DNA from: an uncultured candidate division Zixibacteria bacterium
GTDB lineage: Bacteria; Zixibacteria; MSB-5A5; UBA10806
Assembly: GCA_963801605.1 (NCBI GenBank)
Contig: CAWDFP010000006.1
Span: forward strand, 256,001 to 320,000
DNA length: 64,000 nt
Direction of reading: 5' to 3'
The stretch's first letter is position 1; every line of letters starts with the position of its first letter. Made by a program: the position numbers. Shown piece after piece: positions 6,001-27,000 of this stretch.

Positions 6001-9000
6001 AAATACGTTTGGAGTGGAATTGCAGCCGCCATTGGTGACGTCAACATATTCGTCATAGCAATCGGGCTCGCCTTCCGGTGTATTTGGATCGGGGCATACT
6101 ACGTTGCACTCGGTGGCCGCATTAATGGTCAGCATGAAATCTGAAATGCAAGTGGGGGACGGCCAGGTATCAATCATAATATAATAAGTGCCCGCTGTAA
6201 GGTTAATTGCAGGAAATCCGTGCGGGGTAGAGCCGCCCATTGTGCTGGTGGCAATACAGGTTGTCGGATTTGGCGGGCAGGCGTTATCGATCAAAATACC
6301 AGTCCAGGTGGTACCAAGAGGATCAAGGTTGATTCCATAAGTACCATCTTCAGTAACGTCGAGCTGGTAGATGATGTCTTCGCCACCATCGTATGAACCC
6401 AGGCAGGTAGCATTATAATCGTCGAGTCTGCCGCAGGTATGGTTTTCGTCAGAATAGGGCAGCTGAGCAGGAAGAGTAACGACGATTGGGTCTGTGCAGT
6501 TGTCGCCGGGAGTCGGGGCAGGGGTTTCGGTAACGTTCAAAGTGTAGTCGCCGGTGTAAGTGCTGTAACCGGTAACAACAATGTAATAGGTGTGTCCGGC
6601 CAGAACAGGAACGTTATCGACTTCAGATGCGGTACCGCAGAAATCGTCGTTGCAGGCGATTTGCGTAGAAGCATCGCCGTCATAGATGGCAATGCCGGTG
6701 TCGAAAGTGGAGCCGCACAGGGAGGCGTTAATCGCACCATCAGCAGCGGGAGCGTAGAAGTATACCACGTCCGCACCGCTTGAACCCAGGCAGCTCGGGC
6801 TATAGTCGTGGGCATAGCCAACGTTTGTGCCAGCATCCGAATACGGAAGCGACGGAATCTCCGTGGCATCAGCAAAAGTATCGCCACCCTGGAGGATAAC
6901 TCTCTGGTCAACCGGAGGAAGAGTGCCGCCGGAAACCTTAACGATTTCTGGATGGACTGGCACTGTTGAGTTATCAGTAGCAGAGGTCATCGGCTGAGCC
7001 GAGGCTGGCTTAGCTTTCGAGGTTTGTTTTTGAACTACCGGCTGTAGATTGGTTGTTGCCTGATGAGTCGCATCAATAGCCGCTTGGGGAGAGGTAGAGC
7101 AGGACGGAGAGTAGTAACCTGAGGCTGCTCACCCTTTACCACGGAATTGCCTGCGAAAGCAAAGCTCCAACACAACAGCATAATAGCCAAAGACAATAGA
7201 AGAGTTTTCTTCATATCGTTCTCCAATTAATCTTCAGTTTGAAAAAAAAGCGAAACTAACGAAACCTAAGGTCCTGATTTCCTGTTGGTTTTTTACGGTT
7301 TACGAAGAATAGAAGTCACTATAAAAAATGCAGCTTCTGCAATCACCTCCTTCGTTACTTTTAGTATTTGATTGATTTCTAAAATAAACATAAGTAGAAA
7401 TTAGCGTTGCTGATTTGCTTTGTAATTTCACTTTACCCGAAAGATCCTCCAGAGAAGTTGTCATTCTGGATATGCAGGAATATAGATTGATCCGCTATAA
7501 ATTAAAGCAGGACCCGTCACCAAATATCCCGCAACTGATAATATAAGATTATCGAATATCTTGTCAAGCCAATTATCCAAAGTTCCCATCTTTTAAATTA
7601 GCTTTATTACACCCGAAAATGCCTCTTAATTCGATGAATTATTTAGCGCTTGCAGTTCCCGGCAAAAGGCGGAGGACCTCCCTTTAAGAAGGTCACCAGG
7701 TAGGTGACATCCAAACCATTGACTGAGCATGAGCCATTGGCATCAGCGCGCAAAATAGGATCGGGGGGCGGCGGGCCTCCCTTCAGGTAGCTGATCAAAT
7801 AAACAACATCCAAACCGTTAACGTCACCCGAGCCGTTAGCGTCGCCAGGGACAAAGGTTGGCCCAATAAGTGTAGTATCCACAAGCGTTTGCGCTTCGGG
7901 AGCACCTGTAAACGGTTCAAGATTTCCGGCCAGATCGCGGGCTCGGGCCTCGAAATAATAAGTATGGCCATTTAATCCGGAGAATGTTGATGATAGTCCT
8001 GAAATGCCTATTCGCCAGTCAACCCAGGTTCCTCCGGATCCATCGCGCGAACGGACATCGTAAATGCCTGAGAGACCGGAACCTACATCGCCTCCCGTGC
8101 TCCAGCTGACATTGAAATTGAGCAAATTGGTCTGTTCCGGTGACGAGGCGACACATCCGGACGGCGGAACATTATCAAACTTGATCGTATCCTGAGCACG
8201 GTTCAGGCATGATTTATTTCCGGCGCCATCGACCAGCCACAGGTATAGAATTGACTGGCCGCTGACAAGGGCGGTGTAGCTTACCGGCGGAGTGCTGGAT
8301 AGATGTCCGGTGGTGTCGTTATCCGAACCTGGGACTGAACCAACTTTATAAAAGGCCTGAACAATACCGGAAGGATCTGTCGGGTTGGTCCAATTCAGGG
8401 AGAAGACCGGATTGGTCGTCCAGGTATGGGGCGTGATGGCGAAGCCAATCGGAGCATTAGGAGCGGTATTATCGAGGGTGAAAGCTCGGCTGGCATAAGT
8501 GGCAAAATTACCGGCAACATCCCGCGCTCTGACGCGCCAGAAAATCCGGCTATCGGCAGGTAAATTTGACGCTGGGGTATAATTCGTGATGGTTGTGGAA
8601 TCGTTAACCGTCTGCGGGTTGGCAAAAAGCGAATCTGTATCGATTTGAATGAAATATTTGCTGATGCCCGATCCGCCAACGTCAGTTACGGTCTGCCAGG
8701 AAAAAGCGGGACGGCGATTATTGGTGAAAGCGTTCTGGGCCGGGGCTACCAATACAGCCGTATTGGGCTTGCGGGTATCTATTTTGAATGATGAAGTTGG
8801 CGTGTAGCTTGTCCAAATCGTGCCGTTACCGGCTCTGGTTCGCCAGTACCAGGTACCGTCTATAAGGCTATCGGGCGATACATAGGTCGTATCCGTAATC
8901 GTGGAATCGTTGATATCGGGCGAAGCGAAGGTGGTCTGCTGATCGACCTGGAGATGGTAAACAGTCGCCTGGGCAGTATCAATCCAGATAAATGTGGGAT

Positions 9001-24000: not shown

Positions 24001-27000
24001 CTCCATACCATTGGCTGCGACTGGGGTTCCGATTGTGCCATTGTGGGCAATGCGCACGAGGGCGCCACCAACCTCGACACCGGAATTGATGCTGACTACG
24101 CCATTAACCATATTGATGGAGGCGGAACCAACAGCAGGATCCAACTTCGGGGTGATGAAACCGTTAAGAATATTGATGAAGCGGACGAGATCAGCGATAT
24201 CGGCATGACCGTTACCGTTGAGGTCAGCGCCGGCCTCTTGGAGAGCGTCGTTACCAACATAGTGGGTATCGAACAAGCAGTGCGGGGACTGTCCGAAACC
24301 ATCGTCCTCTAACCACACAGCGGTACCTTCGATCAGCCTGCGAGCAACGAGAACGGCATCAGCTACTTCGTAGAAATAGCAGTTGAGGTTCGGGTCGCCT
24401 TTGAAGCTCTCGGGGTTAACAGTGGTCACGCAACCAGCGGTTAAGCCGGGATGAATGAACCAGTTACCAGTCTCATCAGAGACGGTATTGGAGGTGTAGT
24501 CACCAGGGCCTTCGGTAATGAAATCAATCGGGATTTCCATACCCCAGGGAAGGCCGGGGGCGACTGCATAGTGCAGTACGAGAACGCGGGAGTCAGCGAG
24601 ACCCCAGTACATCGGAGGACCATCTACGCCGTCATTGACGTCGGCGATCCAGACGAATCTGTCGGAACCAGCACCTACGGGATCCTGGATCCAGTTATGA
24701 TATTCGCTGCCATTATTGATGGCGGGCATCCAATCGACACCAACGAGATTAAGAGCGGTATTGTCGGTGTTGATGAGGATCTCAAAACCACCGATGCAGA
24801 TGTCGGTGTTGAGGGTGATAGCAACGTCAGTGATTGAGCCGGGGATACCAGCTGCGCAATGAGGCATAGAAAGGGCGGTAACTGCATGTTCGGCATCACC
24901 GCAGGTAACTGTAACTGTAACATTCAATGCCACGTGGTCAGTACCATCGAACAGATCGAATGCAACGACTTCGCCGTCTGTGAAGTTGGCGCAATAGCTG
25001 CCGGAAATTGTTCCGCCGGTACCAGTAGCGATAACGCCACCGGGGCCAGTGATGGTCAGAGTGTTCTCGGTATCGGTGTCATGACCGGCCAGAGGAATGC
25101 AACCGTACGGAGGCAGGGTGATGGTGGTCGGGCTATCCCAAACCGGGGCGGCGTTGGGAGAGAAGAACAGACCGGAGTACACTTGAGTCGGTACCACGTT
25201 GCGAACGCCATCCTGCATGCCCCAAAGGAGGCCTGCATTGGCTGGGTTGTGACCCTGGGAGAACGGATTGACTGTTGTGCCAATCAGGGCAGGGTTATTG
25301 ATGGTGTGCATATCTGAAGGTGGCGAGTAACTGCCAGGCACCAAGCGTGTAGATGAAATTCTGGCTCGTCACGAGGATCGGTCAGATATGCAAAACCCAG
25401 GAACGACTGGCTGGTGAAGCCAACAGGATATCGCCTATGACAAGAGCCGGAGGGGTATGGGGTGGGCTTGTAGACGTTATTGAGCACGGGGGTGAGGAAG
25501 GACCTATCATCCCAGAGGCCTACGCCAAAGGCGGGGAAGATGCCACCAGTGCGGGCTGAGATGATAAGATCGTCACTCATTAATGGTACATGCACGAAGT
25601 TGACTGAATCCGGATTTCCGGGTGTAGGATCAGTGGCGCCCCAAACCGGGATTTGGATATCTTTATCGATACCAACAGTCACCGGTGAACCATCAACGTT
25701 TCCAAAAGCGATGTGGAAGTTGGCGGGATCCGGCATTTGGGCCAGCGCCATGCTGAAAGGAAGGCATGCTGCCAATGCGAACAGCAACAATTTCTTCATA
25801 ATTTACTCCTTAAACATTGCATGGGCGTTAAACTATTGACATTCTTAAGATTGCAATTTGCGGAAATCCCTTTCCACGGCAATCAAATACAACCCCTCTT
25901 TGAAGCTGTTTCTTCTCTCTGGTTGTCTCACCTCCTTCAAGGAAATCAGGTATTGTCAAAACTATCGTAAAAAATACAAAAATCTATTGACAGGGATCCG
26001 GCGGCGGATTAAAGCCCTTAAAATAGCCAACCAGATAGGTTACATCGATTCCATTGACCGAGTCTGAATGATTGGCATCGCCCGAGCAGAGGCAGCAGAA
26101 TCCCGGACCCAGTCCCTTTAGATAAGCCACAAGATAAGGTGACATCGAGGCCGTTGAGCTGCCCGCTGCAATTGACATCGCCTCGCGGATTGTTGCCGCA
26201 GCGGCCAGCCAAAACATAAACATAGTCTGTGTTTAGAGTTACGGAATCATAAAGAATGTTGCCGCTGGGATCCGAAACGTTGCCCCTGGTGAAAGCCAAA
26301 GCCTGGCTGCTGTCGCAGATAAGGTTATTATAATAATTCATGTGGATCGTAAATATAAGTCCATTGCCGGGAGGCAAAAATACTGAATGAGTGTCAGGCG
26401 GCATGACGGCTATACCAGTAACGATGATTTGAGAATCGGCGCCGGCGTGAACATTGGCACTGAACATTCTCCAGTTGCTGATCCGGCTGCCAGTAGTATC
26501 AGCGGCCTGAGGGTCACCGGGCTGAAACGTTAGCCAGGCTCGTTGAGTGGTAATGATACGAAATTCGAACCCTCCAACCGCACAACTGTTGTTCATGTAA
26601 ACAGGAATACTTATTCTTTGCAGCGAGCACGGCTCAACAGTAGCGCTGCCCAACGTAACAGTGATAGGACAATCGGCAAAGGCATACTGTGCCGCAACGA
26701 TTACCAATACAAATACAACCAGTGTTAGTTTCTTGAGATTTAGGTCAGCCACATGGCCCTCCGGTTTGAGTGTCTTCAATAGTTACTTCGCCATCCCCGC
26801 GTTGTAGCTTTGTAGCACTAAAACTCCTCCTAATCATTTGAGCCAATTGATGCAAATAGTTTGCCTTACACATTATTTTCGCAATGAAGATAAAGACTAT
26901 GCTTGAAAAAGGTATTAAGTTTTTTCTCGTCAGAGTGGCTAACCACAAGCTCCCCATGCTTTTCTGAAGTTATCAGGGCAGCAGCAAAACGATATCCCAA

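Follow-up and report, generated by a model that had tools for sequence, protein, structure and literature searches.

The cluster described here raises the question of whether an uncultured bacterium of the candidate division Zixibacteria (GCA_963801605.1) encodes, within a window of 64,000 nucleotides (contig CAWDFP010000006.1, positions 256,001 to 320,000), cohesin proteins that could hold the many secreted proteins of the same genome that end in a dockerin-like tail. An initial annotation had proposed a cellulosome-like, proteolytic surface complex. We consider a modified form of this idea rather likely, namely a non-cellulolytic cohesin-dockerin surface assembly, which is exported by a type IX secretion system (T9SS), is encoded by a conserved operon and depends on putative cohesin-dockerin binding.

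The tail was searched for with a profile HMM, which was iterated with phmmer and hmmsearch from the last 90 residues of an S8 peptidase (7643-10432) and applied to all 6351 genome ORFs of at least 80 aa with a domain threshold of i-E<1e-5. It was found on 50 ORFs, 48 of which score between 1e-16 and 1e-41; because C6:1305284 and C6:1305441 overlap and represent two pieces of a single split gene, the tail is carried by 49 genes. The first pass had yielded 48 ORFs, and the best tail domain ends at most 40 residues from the ORF end in 48 of the 50. As had been claimed, tail and T9SS sorting domain (CTD) exclude each other: none of the 50 tail ORFs is among the 115 ORFs identified with our own CTD HMM (at E<=1e-3, PF18962 matches the genome in 105 places). 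The description of the tail as an 85-residue twin dockerin had to be abandoned, however, and judged by sequence profiles and predicted fold, the tail is a single dockerin with two calcium-loop repeats and a long Cys-bearing linker between them. Positions 1-53 of the 57 positions of the Pfam profile Dockerin_1 span both repeats of the S8 tail, and solved dockerins of 60-70 residues align across both repeats. Among PDB sequences, the tail profile has 26 matches at E<=1 (best 1.7e-5), nearly all of which are dockerins or dockerin-bearing cellulosomal enzymes. An AF2 model of the tail (pLDDT 89.4) consists of two helices and a linker hairpin, and ranks 1-31 of its 35 Foldseek matches are dockerins (prob ~1.0, target-normalised TM 0.57-0.81); the linker has thus, according to the model, grown into a β-hairpin. 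Across 45 tails, both repeats show no or almost no variation at calcium-loop positions 1, 3, 9 and 12. The tails contain two, four or six cysteines, depending on the lineage, for which one to three disulfide staples would be the simplest reading; three disulfides would fit poorly, because searches of the genome, which is 87% complete, found no DsbB and no VKOR.

Dockerins are also located N-terminally (C6:1624822, P0249 and P0251) or internally (P0002, P0004, P0005/7 and C6:1208794), and C6:961410 and C6:961796 consist of a signal peptide and a dockerin and nothing else. Given these copies, the tail appears to behave as a binding module rather than as a terminal signal, and the connector architectures, which are Coh-Doc, Doc-X-Doc and the bare signal peptide with dockerin, have a plausible meaning only if the dockerin serves for binding.

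The cohesin locus extends from 2254 to 26779, and not only from 7643 as initially annotated, lies on the minus strand throughout and contains about nine cohesin modules. That its proteins hold real cohesins was confirmed by Pfam, by profile comparison with PDB sequences and by hhalign; Pfam, family HMMs and hhalign together yield about 14 cohesin-like modules in the whole genome, where only three to five had been assumed. Pfam alone reports Cohesin and Por_Secre_tail on 20036-22165 and 22179-23003, and Por_Secre_tail on 10479-11972 and 23560-25344. In the assembly, frameshifts break three of the locus genes. P0006 (25993-26779), a small adaptor without CTD, comprises a signal peptide, a cohesin-like module and a C-terminal dockerin, which is split by a frameshift near 26093-26136; tblastn with the 248-aa orthologue of genome G253 continues into another reading frame, whereby the second repeat is recovered. 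In hhalign, the P0006 family alignment matches the P0003 cohesin at 96.9% and the tails at 99.5%, and orthologues of P0006 head the cluster in five of eight relatives' loci. P0007 and P0005 form one gene (23560-25799), which encodes an N-domain, a cohesin, an internal dockerin, a second cohesin and a T9SS CTD (hhalign 97.9%, 99.3% and 96.8% for Coh, Doc and second Coh; Por_Secre_tail 47.1 bits). A frameshift lies between about 25311 and 25392, and the 736-aa G253 orthologue matches in two frames in tblastn; a 599-nt RNA-library contig of a close relative has one base fewer at 25312 and at 25366, which results in a continuous frame. P0003 (22179-23003) carries, behind its signal peptide, a single cohesin (aa 22-172; Pfam Cohesin 28.8 bits) and a type A CTD (Por_Secre_tail 28.5 bits), and its family profile matches solved cohesins with an E of 4.6e-8.

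P0002 (20036-22165) is composed of a signal peptide, a cohesin (25-180), a Big_9-like Ig domain (181-282), a second cohesin (283-417), a dockerin (417-482), a third cohesin (490-620) and a CTD (624-709). Pfam detects Cohesin (51.6 bits), Dockerin_1 (26.2 bits) and Por_Secre_tail (30.7 bits), our own family HMMs also match its modules, and hhalign supports the first (100%), the middle (97.8% against the P0003 cohesin) and the third cohesin (96.5%). The neighbouring gene (11975-19948) encodes a giant protein of 2657 aa, in which a signal peptide precedes some 27 Ig repeats of the Big_9/cadherin-like type (Big_9 1.9e-117; the P0002 Ig profile matches 27 times) and a dockerin free of Cys (aa 2572-2634, DNA 12047-12235; Dockerin_1 33.3 bits). 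P0004 (10479-11972) starts 2 nt past the stop of the giant gene and consists of a signal peptide, a cohesin (30-190), an internal dockerin (188-252), a second cohesin (280-405) and a T9SS CTD (Por_Secre_tail 29.7 bits). According to hhalign, its N-terminal module matches the P0002 middle cohesin at 95.5%, the C-terminal module the third P0002 cohesin at 96.1% and the dockerin that of P0002 at 98.1%, whereas controls against an Ig domain remain below 1%. The cluster closes with two dockerin-tailed proteins. P0001 (7643-10432) is a subtilisin-family S8 peptidase (Peptidase_S8 3.5e-47) that also contains Ig-like domains and a short dockerin with two Cys (DNA 7652-7858; Dockerin_1 33.9 bits). The second (2254-7226) is a Cys-rich protein of at least 1578 aa with a PPC-like domain (26.1 bits) and a long six-Cys dockerin (DNA 2332-2571; tail i-E 3e-40); a frameshift interrupts this gene, because the signal peptide, which resembles that of the paralogue C6:134124, sits in a separate frame (ORF 7035-7226).

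Approximately 210 of the phylum's 285 genomes contain orthologues of P0002 with E<=1e-99, full-length ones included, as counted by eye from a table with four candidates scored per genome. CTD-bearing cohesin proteins, the P0002 orthologue and an Ig-repeat gene follow each other in this order in all eight relatives' loci; the Ig-repeat gene is a giant one in seven of them and a 908-aa ORF with seven Ig domains in the eighth. P0003 orthologues (277-310 aa) adjoin the P0002 orthologue in 13 of 13 genomes of family f1 and 7 of 10 of family f2, P0004 orthologues are found in 21 of 24 genomes from the order, and in all of 20 order-level loci the P0004 orthologue adjoins a gene that ends in Ig repeats and a dockerin. 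In the families without a dockerin match (f4, 0/3; f18, 0/5), P0002 matches are at CTD level only. The core of the locus, which was absent from the initial annotation, is a giant Ig-repeat dockerin protein flanked by Coh-Doc-Coh-CTD proteins, an arrangement that occurs phylum-wide. Because six genomes with a P0002 orthologue (G026, G027, G034, G096, G122 and G282) lack a tail match at E<=1e-5 among 18 candidates scored per genome, the scaffold seems to have a conserved role independent of the tail cargo. Four relatives of the order have 43-68 tails per genome, and the 48 enzyme tails appear to have expanded at lineage level on the basis of the phylum-wide scaffold and giant locus.

The families on the tail cargo comprise S8 (two), C25 (three), M14, M28 and InhA-like MAM (M6-like) peptidases, LVIVD (four) and Kelch (two) propellers, a cupredoxin, Omp28 and Sortilin/Vps10, and no Pfam family matches 14 of the tail ORFs at E<=1e-4. 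The family list and the mainly proteolytic character given earlier agree with this result: peptidases and β-propellers prevail, and Pfam detected no glycoside hydrolase families. At E<=1e-10, 24 of the 38 cargo bodies are matched by a CTD-bearing paralogue in the same genome (14 of them at 1e-50), and for 13 the CTD is on the best paralogue; for example, the C25 peptidases C6:794783 (dockerin) and C6:898317 (CTD) match with 1055 bits. This exchange of dockerin and CTD within families supports, as far as sequence comparison goes, a shared destination of the paralogues and was counted as added support for a surface complex.

Type A CTDs above the Pfam cut-off terminate P0002, P0003, P0004 and P0005/7, and the genome encodes SprA (707 bits) and PorU (701 bits), which is adjoined by a PorV-like gene. 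The proposal of T9SS-anchored cohesins is retained with respect to the secretion system, but not to covalent anchoring, since a CTD shows export and not attachment. The four proteins would leave the cell through T9SS and are probably kept on the outer membrane; three of them contain a Coh-Doc-Coh-CTD cassette. The locus cohesins could receive dockerins from three sources, which are the giant Ig-repeat fibre, whose gene lies between those of P0002 and P0004, about 49 dockerin-ended proteins, mainly peptidases and β-propellers, which carry Sec signal peptides and no CTD, and the scaffold proteins themselves, whose internal dockerins, together with the Coh-Doc adaptor P0006, may produce a cross-linked scaffold. 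Both the binding and its pairing specificity are inferred. Because a conserved cluster of exported cohesins coexists with about 50 secreted dockerin-ended peptidases, propellers and adhesins, the assembly is probably a protein-degrading relative of the cellulosome on the cell surface. Real dockerins, real cohesins, CTDs, T9SS and peptidase and propeller cargo thus remain of the complex first proposed, while the twin dockerin, the scarcity of cohesins and the covalent anchoring do not.

Three other explanations have to be weighed against this assembly. The locus might serve only the giant Ig fibre and a self-assembling scaffold, with the roughly 38 long Cys-rich tails using other partners, such as the non-locus cohesins C6:1208794, C6:178511, C6:1905623 and C6:1732363, or none. 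Scaffold proteins and giant, and not the enzyme cargo, are indeed the part conserved across the phylum, the scaffold occurs in six genomes that lack tail matches, the Cys-free dockerin of the giant is of another subtype than the long tail, and the cohesin-CTD gene C6:178511 adjoins the dockerin-tailed gene C6:176607. We nevertheless regard this restriction as unlikely: of the two dockerin-tailed proteins that close the cluster, one is of the short S8 type and one of the long type, in 3 of 20 relatives' loci with visible flank, P0004 is likewise followed by a dockerin-ended gene, the locus-encoded P0006 dockerin matches the cargo tails, and P0003-type cohesins and the long tail co-occur in the same order.

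Quite unlikely is a tail that acts by itself as a calcium-binding sorting, stabilising or envelope-binding module, the receptor of which would be, for instance, LPS, an outer-membrane protein or a substrate, and not the locus cohesins. The domain is found internally and N-terminally as well, its sequence and fold are those of a dockerin, for which cohesin binding is, to our knowledge, the sole known role, and the genome contains about 14 cohesin modules, with dockerin and cohesin genes interleaved in one conserved operon. Such a module would, however, suit the C-terminal position of 48 of the 50 tails, the strict exclusion of the CTD as the other C-terminal signal, the enzyme families that bear either of the two, and genome G245, which has 63 tails and in which P0003-type and P0004 orthologues were not found with the queries used. 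It is very unlikely that dockerin proteins pair with CTD-cohesin proteins in the periplasm and pass with them through T9SS, the dockerin being a secretion tag in trans. T9SS moves folded proteins, seven of the approximately nine cohesin-bearing proteins have a CTD, none of the 50 dockerin-tailed proteins has one, yet 24 of 38 have CTD-bearing paralogues, and a clear T2SS was not found in the genome: no GspD-type secretin reaches the cut-off. However, the genome has two secretins, both within PilMNO-type operons, which represent a possible other route, cargo as large as 2657 aa would need to travel alongside its carrier, and we know of no T9SS passenger precedent and found none in the literature searched.

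The preferred cohesin-dockerin surface assembly resembles the clostridial cellulosome (type I cohesin-dockerin; primary, adaptor and anchoring scaffoldins), whose solved modules are the best sequence and fold matches, in its C-terminal two-repeat calcium-loop dockerins on secreted enzymes, non-catalytic cohesin proteins, adaptors with both modules and dockerins that far outnumber the cohesins. In contrast, the Zixibacteria host is diderm, the scaffolds end in a T9SS CTD instead of SLH or sortase anchors, dockerins lie between two cohesins, the linker is a Cys-bearing hairpin, and GH, CE, PL and CBM were not found on cargo or scaffold, the cargo being peptidases, propellers and the giant Ig fibre. 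The C25 gingipains of Porphyromonas gingivalis are T9SS type A cargo and are directed to the surface by a C-terminal module. The Zixibacteria genome has comparable cargo (C25, S8, LVIVD propellers and others), with 115 CTD ORFs, PorU and SprA; however, one third of this secretome class bears a dockerin in place of the CTD, close paralogues included. Cohesins and dockerins outside cellulosomes are usually few and scattered. Peer et al. are said to have reported in 2009 that such modules are spread over bacteria and archaea. The Zixibacteria modules are likewise found on non-glycoside-hydrolase proteins of a non-cellulolytic organism, but lie in a conserved operon with dozens of partners.

The concept itself is already published for the neighbouring phylum Cloacimonadota (PMC8542988). 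In the passages of that paper on Ca. Stygibacter, a putative cellulosome-like complex of dockerin-tailed S8 and C25 peptidases and a CTD-bearing scaffoldin is deduced from the genome; the single scaffoldin of 3755 aa has tandem cohesins and CBM2/CBM3, and the cargo includes GH18/GH57 (PMC8542988). Both systems, which belong to the same superphylum and were deduced from genome sequences, share S8/C25 dockerin cargo and a cohesin scaffold with a T9SS-type CTD. Compared with what these passages describe, the Zixibacteria system differs in its several small Coh-(Doc-Coh)-CTD proteins without CBM, cargo without GH, a giant adhesin as conserved partner, 49 tails, phylum-wide conservation and a Cys-stapled subtype (PMC8542988). 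Atlas clusters that combine Cohesin and Por_Secre_tail were also encountered in Fidelibacterota, Latescibacterota and Bacteroidota, and these leads suggest that the T9SS-cohesin combination reaches beyond Zixibacteria.

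All genes between positions 2254 and 26779 of the window lie on the minus strand and are separated by short intergenic gaps, for instance of 13 nt (22165 to 22179) or 2 nt (11972 to 11975). The initial annotation had proposed that cohesins, dockerins and T9SS C-terminal domains (CTDs) meet at this locus, and Pfam searches of the window genes bear this out. A 709-aa protein (P0002, 20036-22165) carries Cohesin, Dockerin_1 and Por_Secre_tail, a 274-aa protein (P0003, 22179-23003) Cohesin and Por_Secre_tail, and a 594-aa protein (23560-25344) Por_Secre_tail, which is also found at the end of a 497-aa protein (P0004, 10479-11972). 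Dockerin_1 is the terminal domain of a 929-aa S8 peptidase (P0001, 7643-10432) and of a giant protein of 2657 aa (11975-19948), in which it follows Big_9/cadherin-like repeats; the 1578-aa product of 2254-6990 contains a PPC domain.

Several reading frames of the cluster are interrupted. Tblastn searches with orthologues of the relative G253 revealed that 25284-25799 and 23560-25344 form one gene (P0005/7), whose frame is broken near 25311-25392, and that the dockerin of P0006 (25993-26779) resumes in a different frame past approximately 26093-26136. The signal peptide of the 1578-aa protein is encoded by a separate ORF (7035-7226), which places a break within 6990-7226. Together with C6:1305284-1307249 on another contig, four dockerin or cohesin genes are thus split by a frameshift in the assembly, while their counterparts in relatives are intact. 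Three breaks within 25 kb and the split gene C6:1305284/1305441 look more like assembly indel errors than decay. The RNA library of a close relative contains a 599-nt contig with one base fewer at 25312 and at 25366, which closes the frame. Relatives of the P0005/7 gene are present in RNA libraries: contigs from three libraries of three studies, covering wetland and soil, match mainly 23560-25900 with 93-99% identity, although DNA carry-over is possible and stretches left uncovered are uninformative. A promoter scan gave 29 sites versus 28.1 expected and hence no signal; its two best sites (11/12) are located upstream of the cluster and upstream of its last gene. Directly upstream of the cohesin cluster, the minus strand encodes a 1166-aa Ser/Thr kinase with TPR repeats (27627-31127) and a GAF histidine kinase (31087-32790), which could regulate the cluster.

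Cohesin (PF00963) scores above the Pfam cut-off in the third cohesin of P0002 (51.6 bits), in P0003 (28.8 bits) and in the cohesin ORFs L053 (28.8 bits) and L054 (25.8 bits), and a profile of the P0003 family matches solved cohesins with an E value of 4.6e-8. Family alignments were built from 38 full-length proteins among 120 matches listed for P0002 and from 41 among 120 matches listed for P0003. Comparison of like modules with hhalign gave probabilities of 92-100% for the locus cohesin proteins, whereas the Ig domain control stayed below 1% for modules of P0002, P0004 and P0006; the P0005/7 family reached 60% in this control and has an Ig-like segment of its own. Sub-profiles and hhalign yield the architectures Coh-Ig-Coh-Doc-Coh-CTD for P0002, Coh-Doc-Coh-CTD for P0004, N-domain-Coh-Doc-Coh-CTD for P0005/7, Coh-CTD for P0003 and Coh-Doc for P0006, where Coh and Doc denote cohesin and dockerin. 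Outside the locus, Ig-Coh-Doc-CTD is encoded at C6:1208794, two cohesin-like modules and a CTD at C6:178511, which adjoins the dockerin-tailed gene C6:176607, Cohesin and a CTD at C6:1905623, and a cohesin only at C6:1732363. The genome thus holds about 14 cohesin modules, about 9 of them in the locus alone, and the earlier worry that cohesins are too few for the number of dockerins falls; seven of the approximately 9 cohesin proteins possess a CTD.

The dockerin tail is found throughout the genome, which is 87% complete and comprises 14 contigs (3.06 Mb) with 6351 ORFs of 80 aa or more. An HMM iterated from the 90 C-terminal residues of the S8 enzyme finds the tail on 50 ORFs at i-E<1e-5, two of which are halves of one split gene, leaving 49 genes, and in 48 of the 50 the domain ends no more than 40 residues from the ORF end. 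With the four locus CTDs as its seed, a second HMM picks out 115 ORFs genome-wide, none of which is among the 50 tail ORFs; Pfam places PF18962 at 105 positions. The prevalence of the tail, its C-terminal position and its absence from T9SS CTD proteins, all noted in the initial annotation, are thereby upheld, and so is its list of cargo families: Pfam searches (a set of 51 proteins, with the three window tail ORFs annotated in a separate window run) assign the cargo to S8 (two), C25 (three), M14, M28, InhA-like MAM, LVIVD (four), Kelch (two), cupredoxin, Omp28 and Sortilin, and 14 tail ORFs have no Pfam family at E<=1e-4. In the same searches, GH, CE, PL and CBM families were absent from the 50 tail ORFs and the cohesin proteins. 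A crude rule detects a signal peptide in 26 of the 50 tail ORFs; in at least five more it is plain by eye, and several others are N-terminally cut ORF fragments. The Omp28-like protein (G000:C7:106795-108100, minus strand) has a signal peptide and an in-frame TGA inside a redox-like Cys-x-x-x-Cys motif ahead of the Omp28 domain, which fits the selenoprotein claimed previously. About 20 of the 50 tails (e.g., window 2254-2331) continue into an extension of 15-37 residues that is rich in Pro and of low complexity; it often starts with Leu-Ala-Pro and often ends with Glu or Gln.

An alignment of 45 of the 50 tails, from which the degenerate or split L009, L021, L022, L026 and L035 were left out, shows a Cys, a first Ca-loop repeat with its helix, a Pro-rich turn, CxC, about 10 residues, a second Ca-loop repeat, whose loop contains a Cys, together with its helix, and finally CxxC followed by PP. 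A dockerin repeat spans about 22 residues, in which the Ca-loop ligand positions 1, 3, 5, 9 and 12 precede a helix. In the 45 tails, D13, N15, N21 and D24 and likewise D55, N57, N63 and D66 are invariant or at least 90% conserved, and both repeats of Dockerin (PF00404, type I-like) are seen in every long and short tail. Most genes (about 37) encode a long form with six Cys in most cases (strict pattern in 34, variants in 3). The short form (8 genes) is devoid of the long linker; seven of its members have two or three Cys, located in loop 2 and the last residues, and that of the giant has none. A few genes encode irregular forms. Of the tail ORFs, 11 reach the Dockerin_1 gathering score, and short-type tails predominate among them; of about 37 long-type tails, just 3 (L019, L033, L042) are listed for Dockerin_1 at E<=1e-4. 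The long type is tied to the short one via a phmmer search that started with a short tail and recovered 48 ORFs in its first round, and via a search of the tail profile against the PDB. This profile aligns across both repeats with solved dockerins of 60-70 residues (best E 1.7e-5; 26 PDB sequences at E<=1). An AF2 model based on the 45-row alignment (pLDDT 89.4) folds residues 22-32 and 64-74 into helices and forms a beta-hairpin within the linker, and solved dockerins occupy ranks 1-31 of 35 in its Foldseek search, in agreement with a dockerin fold (probabilities 0.2-1.0; best E 0.013, none at E<=0.001). Foldseek E values above 0.001 are usual for so small a domain. Since the Pfam model, the PDB profile alignment and the AF2/Foldseek results all span two repeats, the tail has the build of a single dockerin. 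The term "twin dockerin" used previously is a misnomer, as the 57 positions of the Dockerin_1 model, which cover both repeats of the S8 tail, and the solved dockerins of 60-70 residues each comprise the pair.

The conserved Cys of the tail can be read in two ways. Their numbers step by two, which is most simply read as a series of disulfide staples. The arrangement CxC...CxxC could also suggest a Zn(Cys)4 site; however, this is less likely because Cys counts step 0, 2, 4, 6 across subtypes and lineages; among relatives of the order, long-form tails contain four Cys in members of family f2, compared with six or seven in those of f1. DsbB and VKOR were not found in the 87%-complete genome, despite six conserved Cys on about 37 secreted tails. 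A second question concerns the tail as a whole, which might act as a mere C-terminal signal rather than as a binding module. Its position at the end of nearly all cargo proteins would suit such a role, but a pure signal is disfavoured because the same domain is placed between cohesins in locus proteins, at the N-terminus (C6:1624822, and the Doc-X-Doc proteins P0249 and P0251 from other samples) and alone: the tandem genes C6:961410 and C6:961796 (G000:C6:961410-962143, minus strand) encode products of 110 and 115 aa, which comprise no more than a signal peptide plus a long dockerin and might compete for cohesin sites or cap them.

A comparison of paralogues relates the dockerin tail to the CTD. 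The tail was stripped from the 38 of 50 ORFs with at least 120 residues ahead of it, and the remainder was searched against the genome. A paralogue at E<=1e-10 was found for 35 of the 38 bodies and a CTD-bearing one for 24 (14 at E<=1e-50), although shared accessory domains may inflate the counts at the loosest threshold; for 13 of the 38, the best paralogue bears a CTD. Examples are C25 peptidases (1055 bits), LVIVD propellers (541 bits), S8, M28, Omp28 and cupredoxin. Dockerin and CTD are therefore alternative tails on the same families, and their CTD-bearing paralogues assign the dockerin proteins to the destination class of T9SS cargo. For the CTD proteins an exit route is at hand, since four locus proteins match Por_Secre_tail (PF18962) with 28.5-47.1 bits, as expected of T9SS type A cargo, and PorU (701 bits) and SprA (707 bits) are both above their cut-offs; their surface anchoring is inferred. 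A PorV-like gene with a score under the cut-off follows PorU. Six further PorV-like/FadL-like matches, likewise under the cut-off, were observed (C7:369043-370854, C7:414304-414972, C6:1164373, C11:219216, C6:1093759), several of them on contig C7 near dockerin-tailed genes.

The exit of the dockerin proteins through the outer membrane presents the main puzzle, an export paradox. In the 87%-complete genome, no GspD-type secretin reaches the TIGR02517 cut-off, with only sub-threshold matches, and both secretins of the genome lie in PilM/N/O-type operons; a clear T2SS thus seems to be absent and no obvious exit route is evident for these proteins. For this reason, it could be speculated that the dockerin serves as a secretion tag in trans: tailed proteins would fold, pair with CTD-cohesin proteins in the periplasm and leave via the T9SS as passengers. 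We regard this as improbable. It would explain why dockerin proteins have no CTD, why paralogues swap tails and why a CTD is present on nearly all cohesin proteins in a genome with no evident T2SS; if true, a single CTD would bring an entire group of proteins out of the cell and display them.

Both the tail and P0002 recur across the phylum. Of 285 genomes, 270 contain a match to the tail profile at E<=1e-5 (18 candidates scored per genome), with no matches in families f4 (0/3) and f18 (0/5), whose genomes also score at CTD level only with the P0002 profile. Orthologues of P0002, defined by E<=1e-99 over profile positions 1-704 or approximately 170-704, were counted by eye in about 210 of the 285 genomes, a lower bound as 4 candidates were scored per genome; G026, G027, G034, G096, G122 and G282 have such an orthologue and no tail match. 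In all eight loci compared (20 kb each, eight genomes, seven families), the core order is CTD-bearing cohesin proteins, P0002 orthologue and, downstream, an Ig-repeat gene. In five loci the region end truncates the latter, of which at least 2900 aa remain; in another it encodes a 1517-aa product that terminates in a dockerin, in G253 a 908-aa product containing seven Ig repeats, and in G222 it is situated past the final annotated ORF. In five of the eight loci, the cluster is headed by a small dockerin-ended protein. P0004 orthologues are present in 21 of 24 genomes of the order, and in 20 of 20 loci the gene directly upstream abuts that of P0004 and ends in Ig repeats and a dockerin; gene adjacency therefore makes the Ig-repeat/dockerin protein and P0004 the strongest candidate for a cognate pair. 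P0003-type single-cohesin proteins were found in 13 of 13 f1 and 7 of 10 f2 genomes and nowhere else with this query, i.e., in the same order as the long tail. This co-distribution is only a hint, because it concerns a single clade and G243, G245 and G246 have no P0003-type match. With all candidates scored, four genomes of the order contain 43-68 tails each. Among 1.84 billion representative proteins, the tail profile has 7736 matches with E<=1e-3, of which 1547 reach E<=1e-10 and 300 reach E<=1e-30; of ten clusters looked up, the single named one belongs to Zixibacteria.

A search of full texts retrieved no paper linking Zixibacteria with dockerin, cohesin or type IX secretion. The closest published work, on Cloacimonadota (PMC8542988), infers a 3755-aa scaffoldin that combines cohesins, CBMs and a CTD, along with two glycoside hydrolases and with S8 and C25 peptidases that bear dockerin tails. 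A study on giant genes (10.1101/2023.11.21.568195) and Naas et al. 2018 (PMC5831590) had no bearing on this system. Atlas clusters, taken as leads only, combine Cohesin and Por_Secre_tail in Fidelibacterota, Latescibacterota, Zixibacteriota and Bacteroidota, which suggests that the combination is widespread in the superphylum. A strict cellulosome has CAZyme-dominated cargo and a CBM-bearing scaffoldin, whereas the system of this genome has neither; judged from its sequences, it is cellulosome-like in its predicted working and not a cellulosome. The cellulosome-like, mainly proteolytic surface complex proposed initially is plausible and partly supported: the underlying observations on domains, exclusivity and locus were confirmed and extended, while the "twin" nature of the tail and the paucity of cohesins did not stand.

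To our knowledge, cohesin-dockerin assembly is known in depth solely from Gram-positive cellulose degraders. The system described here extends this theme to an operon conserved across a diderm phylum and to a T9SS-exported scaffold, with a giant adhesin as the putative conserved client, peptidases as the putative expanded clients and close paralogues that swap a covalent-type tail, the CTD, for a docking tail. New are the phylum-wide conserved operon with its Coh-Doc-Coh-CTD cassette and giant fibre, the long dockerin with putative Cys staples, which is confined to one order, the alternation of dockerin and CTD among paralogues, and the export paradox. If the binding proves true, the system would show how an uncultured sediment and soil phylum arranges extracellular proteolysis and adhesion, and protein engineers would gain a new cohesin-dockerin pair that is possibly stapled by disulfides. 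For T9SS research, the way in which dockerin proteins get past the outer membrane is a concrete, testable problem.

Further genes of the window encode other functions. Three adjacent multihaem cytochrome genes on the plus strand (49351-55667; 412, 1440 and 261 aa) contain Cytochrome_C7/c3 and MtrC/MtrF-like domains and may form an extracellular electron-transfer cluster with the gene of an Alginate_exp-like outer-membrane protein (58774-60096). In addition, a type III polyketide synthase gene of the chalcone/stilbene synthase-like type is located at 35517-36563 on the minus strand.
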